This document shows, in pieces, positions 4,328 through 44,899 of a DNA stretch of 64,000 nt. The notes under the pieces were generated by a model, which was not told the origin of the DNA, ran no database searches, and was given only the letters and a program-made list of their open reading frames with translations. Every line of letters begins with the position of its first letter. Within the stretch, counting starts at the first letter, position 1. This stretch comes from Candidatus Woesearchaeota archaeon (GTDB lineage Archaea; Nanobdellota; Nanobdellia; Woesearchaeales; UBA10216), in the NCBI GenBank assembly GCA_016184345.1, contig JACPCV010000004.1, positions 54,453-118,452 of the forward strand, written 5' to 3'. The translations under genes were made by a program, and so were the position numbers.

Positions 4328-5089
4328 CTATTTATCTACACTTCTTTTACGGGCTTTCAGCAGCATGTAGCCCCCAACAACAGCCATCGGGATGCTCCAG
4401 AACTGGCCCCAGGTCAGGCCAAAGGCGTAATCAGGAACGACCTTGGCAAATTCAAGGAAAAACCGGATGCTGCCGTAGAGGAAGATGAACGCCCAGAAAA
4501 GGGAGCCCGTTGGCAATTTCTTATTCCGCAGCTGCCAGAGAACTGCAAAAATTGCAAAATTCTTTATGGCCTCGTAAATCTGGACAGGGTGCCTGAACTC
4601 AGGAATATTGCCAAACTTCACGCCCCAGGGCAATGAAGTGGGCGTGCCGTAAAACTCGCCGTTGAGGAAGTTTGCAATCCTGCCAAAAGCAAGCGCAAGC
4701 GCAGCAGGAATTACGGCAATATCTGCAATGTCGTAAAAGCTGATTTTTTTCTTTTTCGCGAAAAAATAGCCTGCTGCCACCAAACCAATGAGGCCACCGT
4801 GGAAAGCCATCCCGCCGTTCCAGACAGCAAAAATCTGGAGAGGGAAGCTGCTGTAGTATCCCCATGACGATATAACATGGCCAAGCCGCGCGCCAACAAG
4901 GACGGCAAACGTGGCAATAATCAGCAGTTCGTCGTAATCGCTCCTGCTGAGAGGGAGCTGCCGCTTTTTCGCAAGGTGCCTTATGATAAAGAACGAAACG
5001 AGAATGCCGAGGGCAAATATCAGGCCGTAGTACCTGACAGCGAAAGGGCCTATCTCGACAAGGACGGGGTCAATGTTGTAGTAAAACAT
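4328..5089 (-). CDS. lgt: Prolipoprotein diacylglyceryl transferase homolog
   Basis: 253 aa polytopic membrane protein with the Lgt signature FGRIANFLNGEFYG (G-R-x-x-N-F-x-N-x-E). Confidence 0.75.
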   Translation of the reverse strand: MFYYNIDPVLVEIGPFAVRYYGLIFALGILVSFFIIRHLAKKRQLPLSRSDYDELLIIATFAVLVGARLGHVISSWGYYSSFPLQIFAVWNGGMAFHGGLIGLVAAGYFFAKKKKISFYDIADIAVIPAALALAFGRIANFLNGEFYGTPTSLPWGVKFGNIPEFRHPVQIYEAIKNFAIFAVLWQLRNKKLPTGSLFWAFIFLYGSIRFFLEFAKVVPDYAFGLTWGQFWSIPMAVVGGYMLLKARKRSVDK

Positions 5090-5127
5090 GCTGCAAGAGG
5101 AAAAACACTGCTATTTATTGTTTTCCG

Positions 5128-5319
5128 CTACTTTCCGCCTGACTGGATTATGTCCAGAATCTCCTTGGCTGTAAAAAAAAGCCCAACAGCCGCTACTGCG
5201 GCAGCCCCCAGGCCGTGGCCGCCAAAGCCCCTGTACGCCAGAAATGCGCCAAGAAGTATTCCAAAGACGCTCAGCAACATATAAAATCCCGCCATTAACT
5301 TACCACCTCCAACCGCCAA
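5128..5319 (-). CDS. Small hydrophobic protein (2 TM), hypothetical
   Basis: 63-aa ORF, Gly/Ala-rich TM segments. Weak support. Confidence 0.25.
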   Translation of the reverse strand: MAVGGGKLMAGFYMLLSVFGILLGAFLAYRGFGGHGLGAAAVAAVGLFFTAKEILDIIQSGGK

Positions 5320-5420
5320 AAAACCAATAAAACGCCACTAACATTCAACACCACTAACATTCACTATCGTGAAGAATGCTGATGCCACTATTATTTAAAG
5401 TTTATTGAACCGAGCAGGCA

Positions 5421-6293
5421 CTAAACTCTCACAGTGCCGGAGAAAACCGACTCTGCGGGCCCGGTCATGTATACATGGTTATCCCTCGCCCACTCAACCA
5501 CCAGGTCCCCGCCCCTGAGGTGCACCTTAACCTTCCTGCCTGTCTTCCCGTTAAGGGAGGAAGCGACAACAGACGCGCATGCACCTGTCCCGCAAGCCAG
5601 GGTCTCGCCAACCCCCCTTTCCCAAACCAGAAGCTCAACCTCTTTCCTGTTCAGGACCCGGACAAACTCGGCATTTGCCCTCCTCGGAAACACAGGGTGG
5701 TTCTCAACCTCCTTCCCAATCTCCTCAATGTCAAAATCAGTGTCATCAACAAAAGTGACCGCATGCGGGTTGCCCATTGAAACAGCCGTTATCCTGATTT
5801 TCTTGTACTTAAGCTGCAGCGGCTCATCAATTGCCTTTGCTGCTGCGCTGCCGTTCATGGGAATCTCCTTTCTCAGGAGCTGGGGAACGCCCATGTCAAC
5901 CCTGAACATGCCATCAGCAGCAACTATTTTTTTGATTCCGGATAAAGTGCCAATCTTCAATTCCTTCCTTGTGCTGTAGCCATTGTCAATGATAAGCTTG
6001 GCAATGCACCTTATGCCGTTGCCGCACATCTCGGCTTCCGAGCCGTCAGCGTTAACAAGCCGCATCACACCGTCTAATGCCTTATCACTTGAAGGCAGCG
6101 CCATGAGGACGCCATCCGCCCCTATCCCAAAATGCCGGTCACACACGCTTTTTGCAAACGACTTCAGCCCTGGCTCGGACATCGCCCCAAAAACCCTTCT
6201 GTTGGCACTGCCAAAAAGGTCCAGAACAACAAAATCGTTCCCAAGGCCGTGCATTTTCACAAACTTCAGTACATTTGGCATTTTACACCCCAT
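5421..6293 (-). CDS. dapF: Diaminopimelate epimerase
   Basis: 290 aa with the catalytic cysteine motifs (EMCGNGIRC and ETLACGTGACA). Last gene of the lysine operon. Confidence 0.85.
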   Translation of the reverse strand: MGCKMPNVLKFVKMHGLGNDFVVLDLFGSANRRVFGAMSEPGLKSFAKSVCDRHFGIGADGVLMALPSSDKALDGVMRLVNADGSEAEMCGNGIRCIAKLIIDNGYSTRKELKIGTLSGIKKIVAADGMFRVDMGVPQLLRKEIPMNGSAAAKAIDEPLQLKYKKIRITAVSMGNPHAVTFVDDTDFDIEEIGKEVENHPVFPRRANAEFVRVLNRKEVELLVWERGVGETLACGTGACASVVASSLNGKTGRKVKVHLRGGDLVVEWARDNHVYMTGPAESVFSGTVRV

Positions 6294-11552: not shown

Positions 11553-12953
11553 TTAGGCTTTCAATTTGCCTTGCCTCGCCTTTGCGACTGCTGCAACCGG
11601 AGCCTGGGCAACCTGTGCGCCAAAAAACTCGCCATGCAAAGCCCGGACAGCCTCGGCAAGGCGACTCTCATTTATAACGATGCTCACGTTAACGTCAGCG
11701 TAACTCTGCGACGTCATCTCAATATTAATGCCAAGCTTTCCGAGCATTGAAAATATCTTGCCCCCAACACCCGGCCTTGACTTTATGCCCATACCTATCA
11801 CGCTTATGGATGCTCTGTCTTCCAAAACAGACACGTTTGCAAACTCCTTGAGCTTCTCAACAAGCTTTGAAACGTCAAACGACTTATCAACAGTCACTGA
11901 AACATTCACTTCAGACGTTGATACCAGGTCAACAGGAACCTTGTAATCGTTAAAAAGCTTGAACACGTGGTAAAGGAAGCCATACGCCCTGAGCATCCTT
12001 GCCGAGTTAATGTTAATAACGTAAATCTTATTCTTTGAGGTTATGGCTGTCACATGCTCCTTTCTGGCAACGTTTTTCAGGATAAGCGTGCCTTTGCCTG
12101 AAGGGTTGAACGTGTTAAGCACCCTTACCGGGATGTTCCTGTCCAATGCAGGCAGGATTGTCTTTGGGTGGAGCACCTTTGCGCCAAAATAAGCAAGCTC
12201 GCTCGCCTCCTCAAACGAAACAACGTCAACAGTCCTTGCATCAGGCACAATCCTCGGATCAGCAGTCATGACGCCGTCAACGTCAGTCCAAATCTGGATT
12301 TCCCCTGCGCCAAGGGCAGCGCCGAAAATCGCGGCAGAATAATCGCTGCCTCCCCTTCCGAGAGTTGTGACTTCACCCTGCTCATTCTTGCCGATGAAGC
12401 CTGTAACAACAGGGATAGCGCCTTTTGGAATAACTGAAACGGCAGCCGCAATCCGCTGGTAAGCGCCCGGAAGAATCTCCGCATTGCCAAAATTCTGGTC
12501 TGTAACCACGCCAAGGTCATAAGCATTAAACGCCTGGGCGCTGAGACCGATTTTCCTTGCGGAAGCAGCAAAAATATTTGAAGACATCCGCTCGCCAAAC
12601 GAGGCAACGTAGTCCGTAGTCCGGGTGGTGAGCTCCTTGACGAGGGAGATGCCAAAAAGGACCTGCTCAAGCTCGGCAACATCCTCTGAGATGATGCCAG
12701 GGTCAAGCCCCAAGCCCTGAATAACTGTTTGGTGCCTTTCCTCAATTGCACCTATCATTTCTTTCGCGGAAAAGCCCCTCTCAAGGGCTTTCCTGGCTGA
12801 TGCAAGGAGAAGGTCAGTAACCTCTGAGAGGGCAGAAACCACAACAAAAGGGGCACGGCCTTTGCTTGCAGCCACTATGCCAACAGACTGCCGTATGCTT
12901 TCAGCACTGCCAACAGACGTGCCGCCAAACTTCATCACAATCACAGCAACCAT
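11553..12953 (-). CDS. lysC: Aspartate kinase
   Basis: 466 aa, KFGGTSVGS kinase N-terminus and C-terminal tandem ACT domains. First gene of the operon. Confidence 0.9.
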   Translation of the reverse strand: MVAVIVMKFGGTSVGSAESIRQSVGIVAASKGRAPFVVVSALSEVTDLLLASARKALERGFSAKEMIGAIEERHQTVIQGLGLDPGIISEDVAELEQVLFGISLVKELTTRTTDYVASFGERMSSNIFAASARKIGLSAQAFNAYDLGVVTDQNFGNAEILPGAYQRIAAAVSVIPKGAIPVVTGFIGKNEQGEVTTLGRGGSDYSAAIFGAALGAGEIQIWTDVDGVMTADPRIVPDARTVDVVSFEEASELAYFGAKVLHPKTILPALDRNIPVRVLNTFNPSGKGTLILKNVARKEHVTAITSKNKIYVININSARMLRAYGFLYHVFKLFNDYKVPVDLVSTSEVNVSVTVDKSFDVSKLVEKLKEFANVSVLEDRASISVIGMGIKSRPGVGGKIFSMLGKLGINIEMTSQSYADVNVSIVINESRLAEAVRALHGEFFGAQVAQAPVAAVAKARQGKLKA

Positions 12954-13111
12954 CCCCCTTAATCAATAGCGCTAAAAAGCGGAGCTTTCCGACTATTTAA
13001 AGCTTTATTCACCTTGTACAACCGCGACAGGACAAAACAGTGCGCTGCTATTAAAACTTAATGTTACTAAAATAACAAAATTTAAATAGAAATGTTATTT
13101 CCTTTGATGCC

Positions 13112-13792
13112 ATGGTAACTGTAAGCGCTGTAGTCAAGAAGCTCGTTGATGAAAAGCCGCTGCTGCAGGAAGGGCTGAGGCAGGGAATAGTAAACTTTGC
13201 AGCCCTGGCTGAAAGGATAAAGCCGCAGGCAGAGCAGCAGCTTGGGAAGAGAATCAAAGAAGCGGCAATAGTCATGGCGCTGCGAAGGCACGGCGAGGCG
13301 CTGGAAGAAAGCGATGTCCGGCAAATCGGCTTTGAACCCCACACCCAGCTAACGCTTAAGACAAACCTCGCGTACTTCTCTGTAAAAAGGTCAGTGCAGC
13401 TGTTCAGGAAGCTGGAAGCGCTCTACAAGATATTTGACTACGAAGCCGGGGATACCTTCAACGTAATCCACGGCAACAACGAAGTCTCGATAATTGCCAA
13501 TGACAAGCATGAGAAACGAATAGCGGCAGCCCTGGAGGATGAGCGCATAACAACAAAGGAAAAGAACCTTGTTTCAATATCAATGAGCTTCGGCAGGGAT
13601 TTCCCGTACACGCCGGGAGCACTGTTCGCGGTAACAAGAAAACTGTATTGGGACAACGTAAACATATTTGAAATAGTCTCAGCTGCAACCGAACTCACGC
13701 TGATATTCCAGAAAAAGGACGCAATGAGGGCGTATGCGTCGCTGCAGGAATTGATTGACGAGAAGCGGCATACTGCTCACTCAGCGCCATAA
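13112..13792 (+). CDS. Hypothetical protein divergent from lysC, possibly an ACT-like regulatory protein
   Basis: 226-aa ORF transcribed divergently from the lysine operon across a 158-bp intergenic region with TTTAAATAG boxes. No strong motif recognised. Confidence 0.35.
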   Translation: MVTVSAVVKKLVDEKPLLQEGLRQGIVNFAALAERIKPQAEQQLGKRIKEAAIVMALRRHGEALEESDVRQIGFEPHTQLTLKTNLAYFSVKRSVQLFRKLEALYKIFDYEAGDTFNVIHGNNEVSIIANDKHEKRIAAALEDERITTKEKNLVSISMSFGRDFPYTPGALFAVTRKLYWDNVNIFEIVSAATELTLIFQKKDAMRAYASLQELIDEKRHTAHSAP

Positions 13793-14307
13793 TCAACCAG
13801 GCTGAAAACGTCGTAGCCCTGCAGCTTCTCCCTTCCCTTAAGGAACGAAAGCTCTATCAGGAAGGCAAAGCCTGCCACTTTTCCGCCAAGCTTCTCAACC
13901 AGGTCAGCAGCTGCCTTGCTGGTGCCCCCTGTCGCTATGAGGTCATCAACTATCAAAACCCTGTCGCCTTTTTTTATGGCATCCTCGTGAACCTCAAACG
14001 CGTCAGTGCTGTACTCTGTAGTGAACTCCTGCCGGATTTTTTTGTAAGGGAGCTTCCCTGGCTTCCTCAGGGGAACAAACGCAACGCCGAGCTCGTAAGC
14101 AAGCACAGAGCCAAAAATAAAGCCGCGGCTTTCGGCAGAAGCAACAACTGTTATGCCCCTGCCCCTAAAGCGGTCAAGAAACTGCAGGATGGCGTACCTG
14201 AACACCTTGGCATCTGACAGTAAGGGAGTGATGTCCCTGAACATTATCCCCTTCTTCGGGAAGTCAGGGACAGCACGGATTTTGGATTTGATGTCCATCG
14301 TTCTCAC
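13777..14307 (-). CDS. apt: Adenine phosphoribosyltransferase
   Basis: 176 aa, PRPP-binding motif VLIVDDLIATGGT. Confidence 0.9.
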   Translation of the reverse strand: MRTMDIKSKIRAVPDFPKKGIMFRDITPLLSDAKVFRYAILQFLDRFRGRGITVVASAESRGFIFGSVLAYELGVAFVPLRKPGKLPYKKIRQEFTTEYSTDAFEVHEDAIKKGDRVLIVDDLIATGGTSKAAADLVEKLGGKVAGFAFLIELSFLKGREKLQGYDVFSLVDYGAE

Positions 14308-15083
14308 AGCAGCGCGTCTTTCAATGCGGACTGGCAGCTGCAGGACGCCTTTCCGGGAATTTTTGGGATAATATCCAAAAGCAGTTTCTTCGTTTTCTCA
14401 ACGTTGCTTCTCAGGGTTGAAACCACAGCCTCTGCCGTGACTGCCTCGCCTTTCCAGCAGTCATAATCTGTAACCTGGGCAACAGCAGCGTAGCACATCT
14501 CAGCCTCCCTTGCCAGCACACACTCAGGCACCATAGTCATATTGATAGTATCACAGTTCCAGCTCCTGAAAAGGCTTGACTCTGCCAGGGTGGAAAAGCG
14601 GGGCCCTTCAATAACAACATTCGTGCCGACCTTGTGGTAAGGCAGCCCAAGCCTCTCAGCCGAAGCGCCAAGCAGCTTCCTGAGCTCTGGGCAGAAGGGC
14701 TCTGCCATTGAAATGTGGCAGACCTTATCCTTGTCGTAAAAAGTTGAAGCCCTCTTTGTCGTGCGGTCAATGAACTGGCCTGTGAAAACAAGGTCGCCGG
14801 GCCTGAACTCCTCTTTAAGCGAGCCAACAGCACAAGGCGCTATAATCCTGGAAACGCCAAGCTGCTTCATCGCCCAGACGTTAGCGCGGTAATTCACATT
14901 TGTAGGATTTAAAACGTGGCCCTTTCCGTGCCTAGGAATAACAATGACATCAACACCGCCTATTTTTCCGGCAATTACCGGCTGAGACGGCTTGCCGTAA
15001 GGGGTATCAACATCAACCGCCCTGGCTCCTGACAGAAAATCAGCATCATACATTCCTGTGCCGCCAATAACCCCGACCTTCAC
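14304..15083 (-). CDS. mtnP: 5'-methylthioadenosine / purine nucleoside phosphorylase
   Basis: 259 aa, MKVGVIGGTG N-terminus and PNP/MTAP family core (TPYGKPS, VIPRHG). Confidence 0.85.
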   Translation of the reverse strand: MKVGVIGGTGMYDADFLSGARAVDVDTPYGKPSQPVIAGKIGGVDVIVIPRHGKGHVLNPTNVNYRANVWAMKQLGVSRIIAPCAVGSLKEEFRPGDLVFTGQFIDRTTKRASTFYDKDKVCHISMAEPFCPELRKLLGASAERLGLPYHKVGTNVVIEGPRFSTLAESSLFRSWNCDTINMTMVPECVLAREAEMCYAAVAQVTDYDCWKGEAVTAEAVVSTLRSNVEKTKKLLLDIIPKIPGKASCSCQSALKDALL

Positions 15084-20284: not shown

Positions 20285-20683
20285 CTATTCCCCAAGCACT
20301 TCCTTAACCCATTTGTAAAATCTCTCGGCATCCCTCAAAGCGTCAGAAGCGTCCGATTTACTCATGAGCTTTTCTTCGTACTCTGCAGTGCTTTTAATCC
20401 GCAAAAGGTTGCTTAATTGCTGGTTTTTCTTCCCAATCTCAGGAAGGTTAAGCTTACTGAGCAGCTTGATAACCGCTTCATGCCTGCTGCCGCTGTTACG
20501 AAGGCCGAGATGCTTTACTGTAAGAGCATCGGCAGCGCTTATGCCGCAATGAACAGCCGCGATAACAGCCATATTCCAGCTATCGCTGGCAAAAGCAGAA
20601 TTCATGCCGGTATGGCACTCTTCCGCCTTCTTTAAAAAGTTCTTATAAAAGCTTGATGCCACGTTTACTGTATTAGCTTCCAT
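20285..20683 (-). CDS. HEPN-domain protein (toxin partner of the upstream MNT)
   Basis: 132 aa, R-x5-H motif (RNSGSRH). Overlaps the upstream nucleotidyltransferase gene by 19 nt. Confidence 0.65.
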   Translation of the reverse strand: MEANTVNVASSFYKNFLKKAEECHTGMNSAFASDSWNMAVIAAVHCGISAADALTVKHLGLRNSGSRHEAVIKLLSKLNLPEIGKKNQQLSNLLRIKSTAEYEEKLMSKSDASDALRDAERFYKWVKEVLGE

Positions 20684-21267
20684 AAATCCTCACCCTTAAT
20701 CAAGTTGTAACTTTCAAGAACACCCTTGACAAAAGGCGTATTCTTCTTGCGGACAAACTCATTTTTTGACATAATATAAGGCGCTATCACATTACCGTAC
20801 CTTTTGACAAAAAACTGCTGTTTTTCCTCCACAAACTTCTGAACTGCTTCCTTATTGCCAGTAATGAAAAGCACATCGACATCGCTATCCGGCTTCTCTG
20901 TTCCCCTTGCAACGCTGCCGAAAACAGCGCATGAAACCATCCCATTCGGAATCTCCCTTTTTAATTCTTGGACGAAATGATCCTTAAACATTTCCGCCTC
21001 TACGCCAAATAACGTCTGGAGCGCGTTATATGCGTAGCTACCAGTGTTCAAGGTTATGAGATTTGAGCGGCCATGGTATTCCAGCTTTACCAAATTTGAG
21101 GCTTGCAGCTCTCGCAGCGCGCGCCTCACGCCAGTGTGCGTAAGCCGTATGGACTCCGCCAACTCTCTCCCGGTAAAGGTCTTTGCCTTGAATTTAAAGA
21201 GCATCCTGAGTACGTTAACCTTAACCCTACTCCCCAGCACATCCTCCAAAAAAGCGTGCAGTCTCAT
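20665..21267 (-). CDS. Minimal nucleotidyltransferase (MNT) with N-terminal wHTH
   Basis: 200 aa, GS-x9-DxD motif (AVFGSVARGTEKPDSDVDVLFI). Confidence 0.75.
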   Translation of the reverse strand: MRLHAFLEDVLGSRVKVNVLRMLFKFKAKTFTGRELAESIRLTHTGVRRALRELQASNLVKLEYHGRSNLITLNTGSYAYNALQTLFGVEAEMFKDHFVQELKREIPNGMVSCAVFGSVARGTEKPDSDVDVLFITGNKEAVQKFVEEKQQFFVKRYGNVIAPYIMSKNEFVRKKNTPFVKGVLESYNLIKGEDLWKLIQ

Positions 21268-22197: not shown

Positions 22198-22680
22198 TTA
22201 TTTTGCGGCCTTCTCGCACAAGCTAAACATGTTGGTAAAGAAGAATTGGGCGTTCTTAACGCTTTCCTTGGCAGGTTCCAAATTGGCCTGCGGAATTCTT
22301 TTGTAAGTGAACCTTCCCCGCTTTCCCTTCTCAAACTCAAAAATATGCAGAAGCGTGTCTGCCTTAACCAACATGTTTTTGTAGATGTTCAACAGCTCAA
22401 CATCAACAATTCCGTTGTCAACGAGCCTTGAAAAGGCGTCAAAAGTTTTCCTATGTTCTTCCGGAGCTTCAGTTTTTATGCCTTTCAGCAGCAAATACGC
22501 TTTGGCTGAGTAAAAAATAGAATAGTAAGCGTGTGAGATTGTTGCACTGTAATAAGTGTCTTGTTTCATGCCAAAAACGGTGACCTGCAGGCTTATATCA
22601 TCGCTAATCCGCAGAATCATAATTGAAAGGTTCAGTTCATTCTGCGACCGCTGCAGGTATAGTTTATATTCGGAATCCAC
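22198..22680 (-). CDS. HEPN-like domain protein (partner of the upstream MNT)
   Basis: 160 aa, alpha-helical, overlaps the upstream MNT gene by 17 nt. HEPN assignment rests on context and helical composition. Confidence 0.5.
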   Translation of the reverse strand: MDSEYKLYLQRSQNELNLSIMILRISDDISLQVTVFGMKQDTYYSATISHAYYSIFYSAKAYLLLKGIKTEAPEEHRKTFDAFSRLVDNGIVDVELLNIYKNMLVKADTLLHIFEFEKGKRGRFTYKRIPQANLEPAKESVKNAQFFFTNMFSLCEKAAK

Positions 22681-23314
22681 GCTTCATCCCCTCCAATACA
22701 ATGCCATAGAAAATCTGGTGATTATGCACGGCAAGGTGTTTCCGCGCTATTTGCTTTCCCAGATTCTCCTCATCATTCGTAAGCATCTCAATCATTTCCG
22801 CCCGTGGGATTACATGAACATCAACTTCAACCAAAATTTTAAGCTTCGCACTATTCACTGCTGCTTCAATCAGCTTCACTTTTTCCGGATCCTCAACGAA
22901 AATAGCGATATCTATATCGGAAGTTCGTTTTTGCTCGCCGACCGCATAAGAACCAAAAACAGCGACAGAATAGAACTGCGTGACAAGATCAAGTTCACCG
23001 GTAATCCTGGCCACTGCCAGCTTTACCTCTTTTCCAGCCCGCCTATCATTACAAAGAGCAATATAGCAAAAGGTGATATCATTTTGCAGGTTAAGCGTCA
23101 GGAGGCCAGATTTTCCAACTTTCCGCTCGATAATAACTTCTTCCCTTTTCAACTGGTTGATTGCCAAAGCCAAAGAGTTATTTGACTTCTCCCGAGAGTC
23201 TTTTTTAATCTGGCCGCGGGTATGTTCGGCAAATGGGTTCCTTGCGAACACTTCAAATATTTTCAGCTGTTTTTGAGTAAGCATAAAACCACCTAATTGG
23301 TTTATATGAACCAT
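22664..23314 (-). CDS. Minimal nucleotidyltransferase (MNT) with N-terminal wHTH
   Basis: 216 aa, AVFGSYAVGEQKRTSDIDIAIFV. Confidence 0.75.
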   Translation of the reverse strand: MVHINQLGGFMLTQKQLKIFEVFARNPFAEHTRGQIKKDSREKSNNSLALAINQLKREEVIIERKVGKSGLLTLNLQNDITFCYIALCNDRRAGKEVKLAVARITGELDLVTQFYSVAVFGSYAVGEQKRTSDIDIAIFVEDPEKVKLIEAAVNSAKLKILVEVDVHVIPRAEMIEMLTNDEENLGKQIARKHLAVHNHQIFYGIVLEGMKRGFRI

Positions 23315-23982: not shown

Positions 23983-25179
23983 CTATTTTGCCGCGGCAGG
24001 TGCTGCTGCGGCTTTGTTCCTTTTGAACAACGAGGAGAACACGCTTGCACATTTGTGGCTGCTTGCCTTCCTGAGGAAGCCGCACTTAAGCTTCTGGCAG
24101 CTATGGCCTTGGGCTATCTCGTTGCCGGCGCATTCCAGCTTTTTGCAGGCATGATTTGCGGCAGCTTCGTCCTCGCCGCAGTTTAGCTTGCTGCAGCTGT
24201 TGTTGAAGATGTACTCGTCTTCCGCGCATTCAAGAGATGCACAGCTGTGCTCAGAAACGTACTCGTTGTATTCACACGACAGCGGCTGGCACTTCCTGCT
24301 GTCACCGCAAACAAAACCAGAGTCGCAGTCCAAGTCAGTGCAGCAGTCATAATCAACGCAGGTGTGGTTTGACTGGTACTGGCACGAGCCGCAGCTTACC
24401 GGAATGCAGAAGCCCCCATCGCAGCGCTCGCTTTGGAGGCACTGGCCGTCACTGCTGCACGAGGGGCGGTCTGTGCACTCAAAGGAATCGTAAAACTTGT
24501 ACTTCGCTGTGTCACAATCATCATACCTTATCATTAGCTTGGAAACGTTAAGAGGCGTCTGCCACTTCAGCGTGTAGGTGTTTGAGCCCACACGCTTAAT
24601 CCTAGTTATGTTTATTGTTTCAAAATCAGGGCTGACGGCATCCGGGGCATGAGTAAGCTCTTTTTTCTTGCCGCCAATGCTTGCAACAGCATCGTACCTC
24701 AGCATGAACGGCTTTTCAAAGCGGAACTCGTTCTTCTTGTCATAACGGAAGCTGTAGGCAGTGTATTTCCCAAAAAAAGTGTCGTTGCGCCTGTAGCAGC
24801 TGTTTATTGTTATGTTGATGAGCTTGCAGCTGAACTTGAAAGGGGGGCAGGTAACGCCGTAGCTGCCCTTGTCAACTTTTATCGTGTAGTAGCCACCCTT
24901 AACATCAACAACAGCCATGTCGTCGGACGTAAACTTAAACATGCCGTTGGACATCTCTCTCCACGTTCCTGAAACAGCAGAAGCCGAGCCGCCGCTCCTC
25001 TTGATTGAAATAGACTTGCCCCTGTCCTCAAGGTTGGAGATGCTGAAAGCGCCGGTATTCTGGCAGTGAGACTCTGCAACCGGCTTTGGCTGTAGCTGGG
25101 CTGAGACAGCAGCAGCAGTAGCAATAAGCAAAGTGCCGACTAAAGCTGCCAGCAAAGCAGTTTCCGCCTCTTTTTTCAT
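23983..25179 (-). CDS. Secreted cysteine-rich protein with C-x3-C repeats, hypothetical
   Basis: 398 aa, N-terminal signal/TM (LLAALVGTLLIATAAAVSAQ). C-terminal half has ~8 repeats of ...SC.KL.C.EDE... Divergent from the next gene. Confidence 0.55.
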   Translation of the reverse strand: MKKEAETALLAALVGTLLIATAAAVSAQLQPKPVAESHCQNTGAFSISNLEDRGKSISIKRSGGSASAVSGTWREMSNGMFKFTSDDMAVVDVKGGYYTIKVDKGSYGVTCPPFKFSCKLINITINSCYRRNDTFFGKYTAYSFRYDKKNEFRFEKPFMLRYDAVASIGGKKKELTHAPDAVSPDFETINITRIKRVGSNTYTLKWQTPLNVSKLMIRYDDCDTAKYKFYDSFECTDRPSCSSDGQCLQSERCDGGFCIPVSCGSCQYQSNHTCVDYDCCTDLDCDSGFVCGDSRKCQPLSCEYNEYVSEHSCASLECAEDEYIFNNSCSKLNCGEDEAAANHACKKLECAGNEIAQGHSCQKLKCGFLRKASSHKCASVFSSLFKRNKAAAAPAAAK

Positions 25180-25244
25180 TAAGACGACTATGCAACTGCC
25201 CCTTTAAAAAAATTTTGCAAAGGAAGGGAGAGCCAACAGAAAGT

Positions 25245-25252
25245 TTTAAATA
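25245..25252 (+). promoter_or_regulatory. TTTAAATA box for the large repeat-protein gene
   Basis: 27-34 nt upstream of the ATG at 25279. Confidence 0.4.
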
Positions 25253-25278
25253 GCGAGCTGGGAGTATGCTGGCTTGGC

Positions 25279-27969
25279 ATGAGAAAAGAGGCAGGAATTT
25301 CTTCAGCATCAGCTTCAACAATAGCCATCTTTAGCGCTTTAATCGCTTCATTACTGCTAGTAATAGCTGTTGCAGCCCAGGAAGAGGAGGAAGAGGTCAT
25401 GGTCGAGGAGGAGCTTGTTCCTGAGGAAGCAGCAGGGGTAACTCCTGACAGCCCAATCTACGTCTTTGACAAGATTGTTGACGACGTGCAGCTTGCTCTC
25501 GCTAAAGGAGAGGACAAGACAAAGAAAGCCCTTGAAATAAAGGAGGAAAGGATTGCAGAAGCAGCCATAATGGTTGACAAGAAAAAGCCAGATGCGGCAA
25601 AAGGCGCGCTTGAGCTCGCAGCAAAGGCAGCAGGGCAGGCGCAGAAGGAGCTTGACCCTGAGTTTGAAAAAGAGACAAACGAAAAAGTAAGGAGGGCGGC
25701 AAAGCTGCTCTCTGGCCTGCAGGAAAAGCTCCCTGACCAGGGCTGGGAGGGCGTAGAGAAAGCGCTTGACGCACAGCTCAGCGAGGAAGAAAAGGTAAGG
25801 GTAGCGCTTCTCGTGTCAAAAAGCAGGCTCACCTACTGCGATGCCATTGCACAGCAGGACTTTGACCTAATGAAGCAGGACGAACTCTGCCAGGTGGAAA
25901 AAGCCCCACAGTGGCTCAGAGAAAGGGTAGAAGGCGAGTTCAAGTCAAGGGAAGACAAAGCCAGGAACCTGATTATAGACACGGTAAGCTCCTGTGTAGT
26001 AGACCCTAAAAAGTGCGACTGCAGCCAGATACCTGTTGGGAAGCACAGCCAGTCATGCGAAGTCAAAAAGGCATTAGCGATAAGGTGCGAGTACGAAAAC
26101 GACGAGTCGGCATGCTCAGAGCTGGCTTCTGAGAAGCTTGAAGACTTCCTGCCCGAGTTCGTTGGCGAGGAGGGGAAGCAGACTGTGCTCTCGCACCTGC
26201 GCGAGAAGGAAGAGCAAATGTTTGAAAAGTTCAAGCCGCCGGAATGCGCAAATGCGCAAACGTTCCAGGAATGCTTCGCAGTCATGAAAGACCTCTACGG
26301 AACACCCATGCAATGCAAAGGCCTAAGCGATGACGAATGCATGGAATTCATTAAGCGAAACCCTCCAACCGAGAAGCCCAACCTGCCGCCGGAATGCAAT
26401 GAGGCAGGCGTCCAAAAGCCAGTTGAGTGCGCAGAGCTCATGTTCAGCAAATATGGAACACCCCCACAATGCGAAGGGCTTGACACAAGGGAATGCATGA
26501 AGCTGATGAGGCAGGAAAGGCCTGATGCGATGCAAAACGCAATGCCAAAGGAGTGCCAGGACGCAGGAGCGAAAGAGCCAAGGCAGTGCTTTGACATAAT
26601 GACTGCAAAATTCGGCTTCCCGCCAGAATGCGAAGGGCTGGATACTGATTCCTGCTTCAAGGAAATGATGAAGCGGGGACCCGGAGAAGGGCCGGAAGGC
26701 GGAACAAGGCAGGAAACTCCGGAGTGCCAGGAGAAGGGAGTAAAAGGCAAGGACTGCTTCCTGCTAATGACTGAGCTCTATGGGGGAATGCCACAGGAAT
26801 GCGAAGGGCTGAGCGCTGACGAATGCTTTGAGAAAGTGACAAAGGAAGGCCCGCCAAAAGGAGCACCTCCGGTAAACTGCGTCGGGCTAAGCCCTGAAGA
26901 GTGCAGGGCAAAGATCCAGGAGCAGCACGGGCTCCCGCCGGAATGCGCGCAGAATCCTGACCAGTGCCAGAACGCGTTTGAAGGCAGGGGAGTGCCGGGA
27001 GGAATACCTGCAGAATGCGCAGGGCTTGAGCCAGAGCAGTGCGAGCTTGTAATGATGCAGAAGTTCGGGCCGCCGGAATGCAAAGAGGCAACAAAGGACG
27101 AGTGCGAGGCAATAATGAAGGAAAAATACGGAGAAGGCGGCTTTGGAGGAGGACCCGGTCCCGGCGGTCCGGGCCAAGGCGGTGAAGGCGGCTTCGGATT
27201 TGGAGGAACAGGCGGAGGAGGCTTTGTAAATGAATGCGAAGGCCTGCCAAGGGAGGAGTGCGAGAACAAGATGTTTGAAAAGTTTGCCCCGCCGGAATGC
27301 AGCGGCTTATCAAGGGAAGAATGCGGAAGGATGACCAGGGGGAGGTTTGAGCGCGAGAGGCAGGAACAAGATAAAAACCGCGGTGAATGCGAAGGCCTAT
27401 CAGAAGAAGAATGCAGAGGCAAGTTCTTTGAAGGCAGGGGAGAGGGAGACGCAAGAGGCGAGGGCGAAAGGCGGGAAGGAGGGGATGCAGGAGCGGCTGG
27501 ACCACAACGCACATTTAGGGAGCCGCTTGGGGAGCCTATAAGGGGAGCACCTTCTGGGTGTGAAGGACTCTCACCAGAAGAATGCGGCTCAAGAATGGAA
27601 CAGGCAGCGAAGGAAAGGTTCATTCCGCAAGGAGAGCCGATAAGGCGAGAACCGCAACAGCAGCCATACCCGGCAAGGGAATATCCTGCAGGCTCATACC
27701 CCGAACGGGGAGGAGAATACCCGAGAGGTTACCAGCAGCCCAGCGGCGGAGAAGGCAGCTACCCAAGCAGTGAAGGTTCTTACCCTGGCAGCGGGAGCGG
27801 CACCAGCGATGGCGGAAGCGAAAGCAGTGGAGGATTTGGAGGAGACTCTGGAAGCCCAGGCAGAAGTGACAGTGGCAGCGGGGGAGGCGGCTCAGGCGGC
27901 GGAGAAGGCACAGCAGCAGCGATAACAGGCCAGATAATAAAAGCAATCAAGTGGGTAGGCGGGAGATAA
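25279..27969 (+). CDS. Large secreted low-complexity protein with >12 tandem Cys-containing repeats (PPEC-EGL-x3-EC-x2-M-x3-G), acidic N-terminus and Gly/Ser-rich C-terminus
   Basis: 896 aa, N-terminal hydrophobic anchor or signal. Repeat unit of about 22-30 aa (e.g. GTPPQCEGLDTRECMKLMRQERP, GFPPECEGLDTDSCFKEMMKRGP). C-terminal G/S/Y-rich tail. Antisense ORFs in this region are compositional artefacts. Confidence 0.7.
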   Translation: MRKEAGISSASASTIAIFSALIASLLLVIAVAAQEEEEEVMVEEELVPEEAAGVTPDSPIYVFDKIVDDVQLALAKGEDKTKKALEIKEERIAEAAIMVDKKKPDAAKGALELAAKAAGQAQKELDPEFEKETNEKVRRAAKLLSGLQEKLPDQGWEGVEKALDAQLSEEEKVRVALLVSKSRLTYCDAIAQQDFDLMKQDELCQVEKAPQWLRERVEGEFKSREDKARNLIIDTVSSCVVDPKKCDCSQIPVGKHSQSCEVKKALAIRCEYENDESACSELASEKLEDFLPEFVGEEGKQTVLSHLREKEEQMFEKFKPPECANAQTFQECFAVMKDLYGTPMQCKGLSDDECMEFIKRNPPTEKPNLPPECNEAGVQKPVECAELMFSKYGTPPQCEGLDTRECMKLMRQERPDAMQNAMPKECQDAGAKEPRQCFDIMTAKFGFPPECEGLDTDSCFKEMMKRGPGEGPEGGTRQETPECQEKGVKGKDCFLLMTELYGGMPQECEGLSADECFEKVTKEGPPKGAPPVNCVGLSPEECRAKIQEQHGLPPECAQNPDQCQNAFEGRGVPGGIPAECAGLEPEQCELVMMQKFGPPECKEATKDECEAIMKEKYGEGGFGGGPGPGGPGQGGEGGFGFGGTGGGGFVNECEGLPREECENKMFEKFAPPECSGLSREECGRMTRGRFERERQEQDKNRGECEGLSEEECRGKFFEGRGEGDARGEGERREGGDAGAAGPQRTFREPLGEPIRGAPSGCEGLSPEECGSRMEQAAKERFIPQGEPIRREPQQQPYPAREYPAGSYPERGGEYPRGYQQPSGGEGSYPSSEGSYPGSGSGTSDGGSESSGGFGGDSGSPGRSDSGSGGGGSGGGEGTAAAITGQIIKAIKWVGGR

Positions 27970-27972
27970 CTT

Positions 27973-28260
27973 TTACTTCTTTGATGCATTTTTGTTGCGG
28001 TAGTAAAGCCACATCGCAGTTGCACCAGTAACAAGGCCAGCCGCAGCACCAGCAACCAAGCCTTCAAGCCCTGCAGTGTAAACAGGATGATTGTCAATGA
28101 ACTGCCTAACGCCTTCCGGCGCAGCAGATTTGACAGTGCCATAAGCAAAGTCAACCGCCTTAAAGAACCAGCCGTGAGGCGGAGGCAGGCCTGTGTAAGC
28201 GGCTGTAGCTAATGCGGCAATGCCGCCCACGATTAAAACAGGCTTTGAAACCTTCATCAT
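27973..28260 (-). CDS. Small membrane protein, hypothetical
   Basis: 95 aa, two hydrophobic segments and a lysine-rich C-terminus. Confidence 0.35.
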   Translation of the reverse strand: MMKVSKPVLIVGGIAALATAAYTGLPPPHGWFFKAVDFAYGTVKSAAPEGVRQFIDNHPVYTAGLEGLVAGAAAGLVTGATAMWLYYRNKNASKK

Positions 28261-28369: not shown

Positions 28370-28996
28370 ATGAAGGCTTTAAAGACGTTATCAATAGGCG
28401 CAGAAGCCGTTATATACGCAGATGAGCGCAGGAAGGCTGTAATTAAGCAGCGGCAGCCAAAGAAATACCGCGTTAAAGAACTGGATGAGAAACTCAGGCT
28501 GCACCGCATGAGAAGGGAGGCAAAGGTGATTGAAGCGCTGCAGAAGCTCGGAATACCTGTCCCTAAGCTGGTTGATGCTGATGAGAAAACAGCAACGATA
28601 ACGATGCAACTCATTGAAGGCAGGAAGGTAAGGGACGTCCTAGGCAAAGGCAATTACCGTGACATTTGCAGCAAGATAGGGAAAGCGATTGGAACAATGC
28701 ACTCCAGCGACATTGTCCACGGCGACTTGACTACGTCAAACATGATTCGCAGCAGCCACGACGGAAAAACATACTTTGTAGACTTCGGGCTGAGCCTTTT
28801 TTCAAACAAGGATGAGGACAAGGCAGTTGACCTGCATCTCTTCAGGCAGGCACTCAGCAGCAGCCATCATGAAATTGCGAATAAGTGCTTTACAGCTGCT
28901 GTGACAGCCTACAAGGGAACAAACAAAAACTGGCAGCCTGTGCTAAGACGTCTGGAAAAGGTTGAAGAACGAGGAAGGAACAAAGGGAAAGGATAG
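28370..28996 (+). CDS. bud32: KEOPS complex kinase/ATPase Bud32
   Basis: 208 aa. RIO-like kinase motifs HGDLTTSNM and DFGLS. Confidence 0.8.
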   Translation: MKALKTLSIGAEAVIYADERRKAVIKQRQPKKYRVKELDEKLRLHRMRREAKVIEALQKLGIPVPKLVDADEKTATITMQLIEGRKVRDVLGKGNYRDICSKIGKAIGTMHSSDIVHGDLTTSNMIRSSHDGKTYFVDFGLSLFSNKDEDKAVDLHLFRQALSSSHHEIANKCFTAAVTAYKGTNKNWQPVLRRLEKVEERGRNKGKG

Positions 28997-43288: not shown

Positions 43289-44899
43289 TCACCGGAACTG
43301 CTTTTCTTTCATCATGTCCCTGACAAACTTCTTTGTCTCAGGGCTGTCCCTGTCCAGGGCCTTGGGCTGCGCTGGCTGGCGCTGCATCTGCTGCCTGCGC
43401 TTCTCCTCGATTATGCGCCTTATCCTGGACTCCTCATCATCAGGCTGCTGCACCGACCTTTGGCTGCTGCCAGCTTCACCGCTGCCACCTCTCTGCACCC
43501 TTTCCATTGAGCTGCCCCTTCTCTTTTTACGCAGGGAGGAAAGCCCTATAACCGCAACAAGAATCATCAGTGCGGTAAGCAGGAACGGAAGGCGGCTGCC
43601 CTGCTGCCTGCCGGTTTCCGGAGCTATGACCTTGACGTTGGTGCCTGTTATGCCAAGGAAATCAGACGCTTTCTTGACAACAGAGCGCCTGTCCTCAACG
43701 TACACGTTTTCAACAGGGGATGTGCCGGCAACTGTTGGGAAGCTTATGTTGTATTCCCCGCCTGAAACAGCCTTTGTAAGGTCCACCTCAAAGGCCTGGC
43801 CGGGCTTCATGTCAACATCTTCAACAACCACATAAGTCTTCCTGCCAGACAAAGTTACATTGAACATCTTGGCATAATTAACATTGCCTGTGTTGTTGAC
43901 GATAACAGTTCCGTTGTTGAACACGACAGACACACTCTCAACCTCATCAACCACCAGCGGGCTTGCGTCTGCAAGGCCCTTCCCCGATGAGGTGAGGGTA
44001 TAAGCTCCCGGTGCCTGGCCGGGCGCGAAAGCAAGCGTGATGTTTGTGCCCGTATAATTTAATGCGGAGAGGACCGCATTGCCGGCCTGGTCAGAAACCC
44101 TGACGGCAATTGGGGAGCTTATCAAATCATCAGCCTGGTCGTAAACCAAAACAGACAGGTAGAAGATTTCTCCAGGCTTTACAGTACGGCTGCTTAGCGT
44201 GTTAACTATGCGGGTAGGGACTGCCTGGACATCAAAGCCAATCGATGCGGAGCCTGAGTTGCCATACGAGTCGTTGACTGTGAATGAAAGTACATGCCTG
44301 CCGCTCTTAATGTTTCTTGGGAGCCTGATGCTGTACGAAAAGGTGTTGTTTGAAACAAGCGAGGAGTACTGGGTGCCGAGAAAAGCCATCACCACAGAAG
44401 CTGGCAGCGCGTGGCTCTTGCCAACAGTGCCGGAAACCTCAACAGACTGGGATGGAAGGTATGATTCCTTATCAATGAGCAGTGCCACCGATGCCAGGTT
44501 AGTGACGTTGAAGAAGTTTGAAATGCCGCTCTCATTCACAGAGCTGTCAAAAGAGGTTGCATTTGCAGCAACATAGCACCTTCCAAGCATGCTGCCGGAA
44601 ATGCTGAGCGGGGGAACGCTGACCTCCTGCTTCTGGCCTGCATTAAGGTTTGTAGGCAGCGTGTAAAAGTCCAGCCCATAATTGGTGCAGAACAGGGAAA
44701 GCTTCAGCAGCCCGCTAAAGTCCTGGTCGCGCGAAAAATCGTAATTAACCACGACCTGGTCTCCAAAGTTATAAGCATCCTTGTCAGCCTTCACATTCAG
44801 GGAGGCAGAAGCCGAAACAGCACCAAGCAACAGGACGAAACCAAGCAACAGGACGAAATAGACGGCACCCGAGAGAGAACTACACACGCTTTTCTTCAT
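43289..44899 (-). CDS. Predicted cell-surface protein (signal peptide, large extracellular domain, C-terminal TM anchor, charged tail)
   Basis: 536 aa. N-terminal signal (LLLGFVLLLGAVSASA), Ser/Thr/Asn/Val-rich beta-type domain, TM LLTALMILVAVIGL, basic cytoplasmic tail. Confidence 0.5.
   Translation of the reverse strand: MKKSVCSSLSGAVYFVLLLGFVLLLGAVSASASLNVKADKDAYNFGDQVVVNYDFSRDQDFSGLLKLSLFCTNYGLDFYTLPTNLNAGQKQEVSVPPLSISGSMLGRCYVAANATSFDSSVNESGISNFFNVTNLASVALLIDKESYLPSQSVEVSGTVGKSHALPASVVMAFLGTQYSSLVSNNTFSYSIRLPRNIKSGRHVLSFTVNDSYGNSGSASIGFDVQAVPTRIVNTLSSRTVKPGEIFYLSVLVYDQADDLISSPIAVRVSDQAGNAVLSALNYTGTNITLAFAPGQAPGAYTLTSSGKGLADASPLVVDEVESVSVVFNNGTVIVNNTGNVNYAKMFNVTLSGRKTYVVVEDVDMKPGQAFEVDLTKAVSGGEYNISFPTVAGTSPVENVYVEDRRSVVKKASDFLGITGTNVKVIAPETGRQQGSRLPFLLTALMILVAVIGLSSLRKKRRGSSMERVQRGGSGEAGSSQRSVQQPDDEESRIRRIIEEKRRQQMQRQPAQPKALDRDSPETKKFVRDMMKEKQFR

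Follow-up and report, generated by a model that had tools for sequence, protein, structure and literature searches.

Cysteine-rich repeat proteins of the cell surface are an already known kind of protein. The Helicobacter cysteine-rich proteins (Hcp) and other Sel1-like proteins are secreted and built from alpha-helical repeats, each held by one disulfide staple, while the surface-layer (S-layer) glycoproteins of the PGF-CTERM/archaeosortase type are exported, acidic or N-glycosylated envelope proteins in which a linker precedes a C-terminal anchoring signal. For the DPANN archaea and the bacteria of the Candidate Phyla Radiation (CPR), both thought to live attached to other cells, the molecules of contact are almost wholly uncharacterised, and in one nanoarchaeal population study cell-surface proteins were the most rapidly diversifying genes (PMC6142677). 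Here we describe two adjacent genes, A and B, in a 64,000-nucleotide stretch of DNA (the window) from a genome bin of Candidatus Woesearchaeota (DPANN), a tiny groundwater archaeon. With a probability of about 0.6, we interpret their products as exported structural or adhesive surface proteins that are stabilised by pairwise cysteines and work together, single details of this picture being much less sure. What appears to be undescribed is the two-cysteine repeat of protein A, here called PPEC, with its distribution over CPR and DPANN genomes, the pairing of the two genes, and the C-terminal peptide.

Two divergent genes for conserved cysteine-rich proteins

Gene B (23983..25179, minus strand) and gene A (25279..27969, plus strand) are divergent and separated by an intergenic spacer of 99 bp (25180..25278). 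A divergent pair of open reading frames (ORFs) had been placed at exactly these positions in an original prediction made from the DNA alone, and both ORFs were found to be intact, encoding 398 amino acids (aa) for B and, in a single uninterrupted frame of 896 codons, 896 aa for A. Protein A exactly matches an NCBI record, with 100% identity to the hypothetical protein HYU40_02310 (Candidatus Woesearchaeota archaeon), which is encoded on a 200,984-bp contig. Cysteine accounts for 40 residues (4.5%) of protein A and 28 residues (7.0%) of protein B, compared with 0–2% in most other proteins of the window.

The search for relatives in related bins that had been suggested along with the prediction yielded 18 homologues of A (30–71% identity) and 30 of B (24–100% identity, none with a Pfam domain), and both proteins are conserved in DPANN bins. 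The alignment of A contains invariant P-E-C, C and M columns along the repeats as well as low-complexity segments of variable length. In the alignment of B, 18 of the 20 invariant columns are cysteines, and several further cysteines are nearly invariant. Because invariant cysteine columns are kept in many homologues, the frames of A and B are both truly coding.

Domain structure of protein A

Protein A (all coordinates on the plus strand) begins with a Sec-type signal peptide (aa 1–33, 25279..25377) that comprises an n-region MRKE, a hydrophobic core of about 19 residues and a conserved A-x-A-Q end. The highest 19-residue Kyte-Doolittle hydropathy reaches 2.8, in the segment starting at residue 15, and EEEEEVMVEEE comes thereafter, in agreement with the hydrophobic N-terminus and acidic stretch noted originally. 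Across the alignment of 18 homologues (A1), the motif A-x-[AS]-Q and the acidic residues after it are conserved, and judging from this pattern A would be exported by the Sec pathway and cleaved after A-x-A. The acidic stretch (aa 34–52, 25378..25434; 10 Asp and Glu, no Lys or Arg) was predicted to be disordered by AlphaFold2 (AF2), with a predicted local distance difference test score (pLDDT) below 50. It is followed by a four-helix DUF5667 domain (PF18915; aa 53–154, 25435..25740), which belongs to this family with a Pfam match above the gathering score (E 8.6e-16, 58.6 bits compared to a cutoff of 27) that covers profile positions 1–99 of 99. The AF2 helices of this domain span residues 59–150 (pLDDT 71–84), and DUF5667 is present in 16 of the 18 close homologues. 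Next comes a helical 'mid' domain (aa 155–311, 25741..26211) with eight invariant cysteines (187, 204, 239, 246, 248, 260, 270 and 279), which in the AF2 model are borne on long helices between residues 157 and 318 (pLDDT 71–87).

Residues 312–779 (26212..27615) consist of 16 consecutive two-cysteine PPEC units, running from C323 to C769, where more than twelve repeats had been foreseen. The two cysteines are spaced C-x7-C in 11 units (C-x-G-L-x3-E-C), C-x10-C in two, and by six, eight and nine residues in one unit each, while the gaps between units range from 12 to 48 residues. Most units carry P-P-E or P-x-E before the first cysteine and a methionine four residues past the second. In the AF2 model, a unit forms a one-turn helix at P-E-C, a loop of 4–7 residues within the 6–10 residues that separate the cysteines, and a helix of 10–12 residues starting just before the second cysteine, with pLDDT values of approximately 70–80 within the units. 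Gly-rich or charged hinges at aa 619–650 and 719–759, both predicted to be disordered, break the array.

Behind the repeats lies a disordered Gly/Ser tail that also contains Pro, Glu and Tyr (aa 780–876, 27616..27906; pLDDT about 30) and varies in length among the homologues. A Gly/Ser/Tyr-rich tail had been described as the end of the protein; glycine (31) and serine (18) are indeed abundant in the last ~97 residues before the C-terminal helix, tyrosine being less frequent (6), but a conserved C-terminal helix of 15–20 aa had been missed. This conserved peptide (aa 877–896, 27907..27966; ...ITGQIIKAIKWVGGR) is predicted to form a basic amphipathic helix (residues 877–895 in AF2, at a low pLDDT of about 41–45) and is a candidate tether or sorting signal.

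The complete AF2 model of A, an acidic protein (pI about 4.6–4.7), is all-alpha, with a pLDDT of 61, a predicted template modelling score (pTM) of 0.28 and, besides the two hinges, disorder at residues 781–876. A Foldseek comparison of the model with the PDB returned non-significant generic or designed helical repeats only, and at this pTM global matches mean little; a PDB profile search with the family alignment gave nothing significant (best E 0.5). DUF5667 was the sole match in the Pfam scan of A, and NCBIfam, PHROGs and PADLOC gave none.

Domain structure of protein B

Protein B (all coordinates on the minus strand) starts with a hydrophobic N-terminus, the only strongly hydrophobic stretch of the protein, which begins with MKKEA, ends in a conserved SAQ and has the features of a signal peptide (aa 1–28, 25096..25179). 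Export of B by the Sec pathway would follow from this sequence pattern, with cleavage probable. Residues 29–234 (24478..25095) are basic (pI 9.3) and were assigned by AF2 and Foldseek to two immunoglobulin (Ig)-like beta-sandwich domains, the strands of which mostly have block pLDDT values of 61–89, falling to 48–51 at aa 141–160. The sandwiches (aa 36–234) matched tandem Ig domains of Fab, EpoR and Dscam in the PDB (E ~1e-4, probability 0.99–1.0) and viral Ig-like glycoproteins in the viral libraries of Foldseek, all of them generic Ig-like matches only. At the level of the modelled fold this region is Ig-like, with no match to a Pfam Ig family. Of six N-x-S/T sequons in B, four lie in the Ig-like region (N122, N132, N190 and N211). 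The sequon at N122 is retained by 23 of 25 homologues, and several sequon positions are conserved. Members of the B family have 3–13 sequons each, compared with 0–2 in the ~900 residues of A family members.

The Ig-like region is followed by a cysteine-rich stack of beta-hairpins (aa 235–379, 24043..24477), in which a compact cysteine-rich knot (C235–C302) precedes five hairpin repeats of the form C-x4-C-x10, with a period of 16 aa and nearly all cysteines invariant or nearly so. A signal peptide and C-x3-C repeats had been proposed for this protein; the hydrophobic N-terminus and the repeats were both found, but the spacing had been slightly misread. In the AF2 model, the stack consists of regular paired short strands at residues 251–379 with block pLDDT values of 77–91, mostly 85–91, and the model as a whole (pLDDT 75.7) shows an N-terminal helix corresponding to the signal peptide, the two sandwiches, the stack and a short C-terminal helix. 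An aromatic/basic C-terminal tail (aa 380–398, 23986..24042) has the alignment consensus ...CVSVFSLWFGRK.

No specific relative of the hairpin stack was found by Foldseek in the PDB or the viral libraries, and a PDB profile search with the B family alignment gave no significant match (best E 0.04). Neither Pfam nor NCBIfam matched B, nor did PHROGs and PADLOC, so that both A and B are without a match among phage and anti-phage defence families. The earlier view that the repeats resemble no known family was thereby borne out for both repeat types, neither of which has a described family, though it does not extend to the whole proteins, given DUF5667 in A and the Ig-like N-terminal half of B.

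The PPEC repeat in DPANN archaea and CPR bacteria

Among 1.84 billion representative proteins, a profile of the repeat built from alignment A3 (aa 312–618, 13 sequences) matched 204 at E ≤ 1e-3, of which 95 reached ≤ 1e-10 and 32 reached ≤ 1e-30. Roughly a third of the 204 are DPANN proteins with DUF5667, and over half are CPR proteins. The 149 newly listed matches (P0049–P0197; P0004 was already known) were classified with local hidden Markov models (HMMs) and with motif and hydropathy tests. A DPANN-type architecture was observed in 45 of these (about 55 including matches to the adjacent cysteine-helical domain only), consisting of DUF5667, the eight-cysteine mid domain, which according to its local HMM co-occurs with DUF5667, and 1–15 repeats. 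The other architecture, of CPR type, was found in 84 proteins of 600–1700 aa, in which N-terminal arrays of Ig-like domains (Big_7, fn3) are followed by 10–25 repeats, then by a TSP3-type calcium-binding motif and Big_13/Ca_tandemer adhesin modules, and in 80 of the 84 by a C-terminal transmembrane anchor. The named members of this type are from Candidatus Parcubacteria and Paceibacterota, and their contigs bear bacterial genes (HrcA, GrpE, DnaB, PriA, Fmt, Def and TsaD/E). NCBIfam models matched only the adhesin-type parts of the CPR-type proteins (Ca_tandemer, and the TSP3 regions of CglD and MtsD). They left the repeat unmatched, and neither Pfam 2025 nor NCBIfam 2026 holds a model for it.

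The units with ten residues between the cysteines have the consensus 'k.mPpECkEAGAttPeEC..IM..KyG' in DPANN archaea (n=90) and '..lPpEC.eAGItt.eECeK.M..ky' in CPR bacteria (n=340), which share lPPEC-x-EAG-x-tt-x-eEC-x-K-x-M. The seven-residue type, dominant in A and found 208 times in DPANN, occurs in CPR mainly as the conserved last unit of the array. With its 16 tandem units of about 26 aa, each of the form P-P-E-C-x(6-10)-C-x3-M and with two conserved cysteines, A is itself a PPEC-repeat protein. Judged from sequence, the repeat is an undescribed two-cysteine helical module of ~26 aa that is common to putatively exported surface proteins of DPANN archaea and CPR bacteria.

Some CPR-type proteins (P0063 and P0132) carry a second type of cysteine repeat, with tandem C-G-[ND]-[GA]-x-C-E-x3-G-E-x4-C-P-x-D-C units that have no Pfam match and stand at the N-terminus in place of the Ig-like arrays. 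On one CPR contig (L035, 6129-10981), the PPEC gene adjoins a VanW/PG_binding_4 gene, with TsaD and TsaE at a distance of 2 kb. Because A abuts Bud32, which is part of the same t6A pathway, a connection with t6A genes was considered; it was not seen in the CPR loci L036 and L037 and was put down to synteny or coincidence.

Pairing of A and B across genomes

In a scan of one genome per species, with no assembly included twice, A relatives turned up at 31 loci, one per genome. All of these are in DPANN genome bins, assigned to Woesearchaeota, Pacearchaeota or 'Nanoarchaeota' or, in some records, titled Methanosarcinales. Searches of these loci with tblastn and with a local HMM built for the B family placed B next to A in 14 genomes. 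The two genes are divergent in 11 of them (the window, L001/6, L002/10, L004, L005, L007, L008, L009, L011, L014 and L015) and co-directional in three more distant genomes (L016, L021 and L022), with B as the upstream gene. The adjacency thus survives a change of orientation, which is better evidence of a functional linkage than shared synteny alone. No B was detected in eight loci for which 3.9 kb or more of sequence upstream was available (L003, L017, L019, L020, L023, L026, L030 and L032), most of which hold the most distant A relatives (25–33% identity); in L003, a 400-aa ORF after Bud32 is not B-like.

Two back-to-back TATA-like boxes were read from the sequence of the 99-bp spacer, TTTAAAAAAATTTT for B (25203-25216) and TTTTAAATA for A (25244-25252), each approximately 25–35 nt from its own ATG. 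This fits archaeal TATA spacing and would point to two back-to-back promoters producing leaderless or short-leader mRNAs. The shared bidirectional promoter that had been proposed is thus retained in the form of the two boxes, but it is not essential to the pairing, since in some lineages the two genes stand in tandem. Over their first 25 nt, the coding regions of B and A (25155-25179 and 25279-25303) form an 80% inverted repeat, the only inverted repeat found, which is due to both signal peptides beginning with M-[KR]-K-E-A.

In one of the divergent loci (L009, 2671-3809, minus strand), the B homologue is split into two ORFs of 233 and 146 aa by a frameshift, as in a pseudogene, or by a sequencing error. 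Six third-party bins titled 'uncultured Methanosarcinales archaeon' (L004, L009, L011–L013 and L024) carry the DPANN-specific A locus at up to 68% identity; L004 and L009 also contain B and Bud32, L011 a partial B, and L012 and L013 Bud32. Their Methanosarcinales labels are probably wrong.

Probable cysteine pairing and C-terminal tails

The number of cysteines in the mature protein is even in 16 of 18 A homologues and in 20 of 25 B homologues, while the totals lie anywhere between 28 and 42 in the 16 closest homologues of A and between 24 and 30 in B, which implies that cysteines have been gained and lost in pairs. Every PPEC unit has exactly two cysteines, and in the A alignment whole units, including both cysteines, are present or absent together. 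The pattern fits disulfides, or some other strictly pairwise use, and not scattered free thiols. Parity, spacing and the predicted secondary structure all suggest disulfide pairing, which in A would most likely take place within each unit. A separate observation concerns L002, where genes for a DsbD-type transmembrane protein and a thioredoxin-like protein (AhpC-TSA/Redoxin) lie 2.3 kb downstream of the A homologue (12754-14629, plus strand); they may represent an extracytoplasmic thiol-disulfide system.

At the other end of the proteins, 37 of 63 DUF5667-type proteins terminate in [IV]-[TS]-G followed by 7–20 residues rich in aromatic, aliphatic and basic side chains (for example ITGNIIRGNSFLRYYFR, VTGGVIFNNDFLNYYYK and ITGQIIKAIKWVGGR), and many of the others are fragments. 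The conserved C-terminus of the A-family alignment reads ITGQI[IV]K..KW[VL]GGR. In A, this basic peptide (pI 11.2) follows the disordered linker of an otherwise acidic protein, and the short tail of B is of like character, both having a pI of ~11. In the C-terminal 60 aa of A-type proteins the maximum 19-residue hydropathy does not exceed the transmembrane cutoff of 1.8, compared with 2.1–3.7 in the CPR-type proteins with a transmembrane anchor, and in two distant B homologues (P0047 and P0048) a true C-terminal transmembrane anchor takes the place of the tail. Since the CPR relatives of A and the distant relatives of B are anchored in this way, the C-termini of A and B are probably cell-proximal, and their tails may tether the proteins to the membrane surface or to a partner. 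Among the other proteins of the loci at hand, the A-type tail was found essentially in A homologues only, which does not support a role as a general sorting signal.

Proposed function and alternative explanations

In the arrangement that we favour, A and B would be a vertically inherited, functionally linked pair sharing one layout, with a head, a rigid cysteine-stapled stalk and a flexible or short basic C-terminal tail. The distal head of A would comprise the acidic tip, DUF5667 and the eight-cysteine helical domain, and the 16 PPEC units could form an elongated alpha-helical rod with two flexible hinges, in which one intra-unit disulfide per unit would staple a short turn onto the next helix. 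At the cell end, the disordered Gly/Ser linker of ~100 residues and the basic amphipathic helix may serve as a tether to the membrane surface or a partner. B would be a shorter, glycosylated stalk carrying two N-glycosylated Ig-like domains on a disulfide-laddered column of beta-hairpins, its aromatic/basic tail replacing the transmembrane anchor of distant relatives. In this lineage, the compact divergent promoter probably drives the expression of both genes together, and the two proteins could jointly contribute to the cell envelope or the cell-cell contact apparatus of an episymbiont-type organism. The disulfide-rich extracellular scaffold or adhesin pair of the original prediction gains support from the Sec-type N-termini, the even cysteine numbers, the adjacency in 14 genomes and the adhesin context of the CPR relatives, from which we infer the role of the pair.

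Several points weigh against this interpretation. The distant A homologues without an adjacent B make the pairing a feature of a subclade and indicate that A can function without a neighbouring B, and the conserved place beside housekeeping genes shows vertical inheritance, not function. Woesearchaeota are generally held to be anaerobes, and no disulfide-forming enzyme was identified in the window, where no systematic search for one was made. The C-terminal peptides of A and B matched no NCBIfam sorting signal and are too short to span a membrane, and with the low global AF2 confidence for A (pTM 0.28) the rod shape is an assumption. A literature search on DUF5667, the PPEC repeat and cysteine-rich Woesearchaeal surface proteins found nothing.

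A more far-reaching version of the proposal would regard PPEC as a new disulfide-stapled solenoid fold with one helix per repeat, passed between CPR and DPANN by inter-domain transfer and used as a host-contact stalk, with A and B at the core of a Woesearchaeales contact or envelope apparatus and [IV]-T-G ... aromatic-K/R as a new C-terminal tether signal; we hold this to be tentative and rather doubtful. It is unlikely that A and/or B are the main S-layer lattice proteins rather than accessory stalks or adhesins. The single locus per genome in a conserved housekeeping neighbourhood, the compact TATA-like promoters near the start codons and the acidic pI of A would all suit a lattice protein, as would the Ig-like domains of B with their conserved sequons, which are found in many archaeal S-layer glycoproteins. 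However, no described S-layer family or sorting signal such as PGF-CTERM was matched by A or B in Pfam and NCBIfam, the all-alpha structure of A with its long disordered parts is unusual for a lattice protein, and B is missing beside A in the more distant lineages. Another use of the cysteines is conceivable, namely that together with the flanking glutamates and the conserved methionine they are metal ligands, A being an extracellular metal-binding or redox-buffering protein. We consider this quite improbable: the conservation of E-C ... E-C-x3-M in hundreds of units, the strong acidity of A and a probably anaerobic organism, in which spontaneous disulfides would be disfavoured, can be cited for it, but C-x7-C and C-x10-C with a helix at the second cysteine are generally atypical of metal sites, the units have neither His nor CxxC, a structural repeat would account for the conserved Pro, Gly and hydrophobic positions, and the CPR proteins use the repeat as a spacer between adhesin modules and a membrane anchor.

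The membrane-anchored CPR relatives also argue against A being a released effector that acts on a host cell, its terminal helix entering the host membrane and B being an unrelated neighbour. In being amphipathic and basic, the C-terminal helix resembles membrane-targeting sequences, and A would have no transmembrane segment once the signal peptide is cleaved; the B-A adjacency nevertheless persists through the change in orientation, and no toxin or enzyme domain was found in A with Pfam, NCBIfam, PHROGs or PADLOC, making this scenario very improbable. A strong purine skew and several long shadow ORFs on the opposite strand could have signalled that the repeat region is non-coding, or an assembly or frameshift artefact. 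This explanation is refuted, as the 896-codon frame is uninterrupted, the frame and every cysteine are kept in homologues from independent assemblies and sources, and the profile matches 204 representative proteins. Tandem Repeats Finder detected no meaningful DNA tandem repeats between 23900 and 28100, indicating that the protein repeats are old and diverged rather than an assembly artefact. A frameshifted or non-coding repeat region and homology to an S-layer family had been named at the outset as findings that would overturn the prediction; the frames proved intact with invariant cysteines, and Pfam and NCBIfam held no S-layer match.

As a conserved single-locus surface pair of Woesearchaeales, A and B would offer a concrete target for metaproteomics, antibodies and cryo-electron tomography, and their locus provides a candidate for a new C-terminal tethering peptide. 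The PPEC module, in 204 representative clusters, crosses the domain boundary in exactly two ultra-small episymbiotic radiations, and groundwater metagenomes contain hundreds of giant 'hypothetical' proteins whose annotation would gain from the definition of such a family. If the PPEC rod is truly disulfide-stapled, one must also ask by what means organisms presumed to be anaerobic oxidise dozens of cysteines outside the cell.

Gene neighbourhood

The neighbours of the pair are archaeal housekeeping genes. On the A side lies the gene for Bud32 (KEOPS), located by an NCBIfam scan at 28370-28996; MetRS and Rpb6 are further neighbours, and the genes further downstream are collinear with the exosome, SBDS and proteasome genes of related contigs. 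A gene for a 95-aa membrane protein (27973-28260, minus strand) sits between A and Bud32. The sequence at its C-terminus, VTGATAMWLYYRNK, is similar to the [IV]TG...aromatic-K/R tail of A-family proteins, but it is contained in a full transmembrane helix. This protein was considered as a third conserved component of the locus and rejected, being absent at that place in L001 and L003; the genes beyond B were rejected as well, those of L001 and L002 being mutually unrelated.

Between the MetRS block and B are two pairs of HEPN and nucleotidyltransferase genes (20285-21267 and 22198-23314, both on the minus strand), which are toxin-antitoxin-like. Other genes occupy that place in the syntenic contig L001, and the pairs look like a local insertion. 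Elsewhere in the window, a full-length Lgt (prolipoprotein diacylglyceryl transferase, PF01790, E 4e-70) is encoded at 4328-5089 (minus strand), and the related Woesearchaeal contig L002 encodes a signal peptidase II (Peptidase_A8; 4980-5450, minus strand); together these look like a lipoprotein machinery of bacterial type in DPANN archaea. A lipobox is absent from both A and B. Another surface-protein locus could be present at 43289-44899 (minus strand), where a 536-aa protein with a signal-peptide-like N-terminus and only weak, sub-threshold Big_13/MG2 matches is encoded next to a YhfC-type intramembrane protease and a SpoIIM-like membrane protein.

Comparison with known systems

Several described groups share single features with A or B. 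The PGF-CTERM proteins are set apart by their C-terminus, as A and B lack both a PGF motif and a C-terminal transmembrane helix and match no NCBIfam sorting-signal model. The twin CX9C (CHCH) proteins differ in the spacing of their cysteines, nine residues being found in only one of the 16 PPEC units. DUF5667 proteins are a family without known function, and the domain, full-length in A, makes up 11% of it, leaving the cysteine-helical domain, the PPEC repeats and the tail outside any model. The nearest analogues of B are type I membrane glycoproteins in which an Ig-like ectodomain stands on a cysteine-rich stalk, a resemblance in architecture only. Its 16-aa period of C-x4-C-x10 differs from furin-like, TNFR-like and laminin-EGF-like modules, and in aa 235–379 no furin-like, EGF or TNFR model was matched in Pfam or NCBIfam, PDB profiles giving E values of at least 0.04.

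For the PPEC rod, the Hcp/Sel1-like repeat may serve as the nearest working analogue. It is a pair of helices of 36 aa, in contrast to the ~23–28 aa of a PPEC unit with one long helix, and no Pfam match of the Sel1 (PF08238) or TPR type was obtained in A at E ≤ 0.1. The closest relatives by homology are instead the CPR surface proteins, such as MFA6096395.1, annotated as 'Ig-like domain-containing protein', and MCK4554294.1, the PPEC repeats of which are homologous to those of A with E values down to 1e-60. They are bacterial, have Big_7/fn3 heads rather than DUF5667, and possess TSP3, Big_13 and a true C-terminal transmembrane anchor, none of which occurs in the DUF5667-headed DPANN architecture of A. 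Their units are mostly of the ten-residue type, whereas those of A are mostly of the seven-residue type. Like A, they contain lPPEC-x-EAG-x5-EC-x-K-x-M units and a terminal C-x-G-L-x4-C unit, appear to be exported, and carry the repeat array N-terminal to the presumed cell-proximal end.

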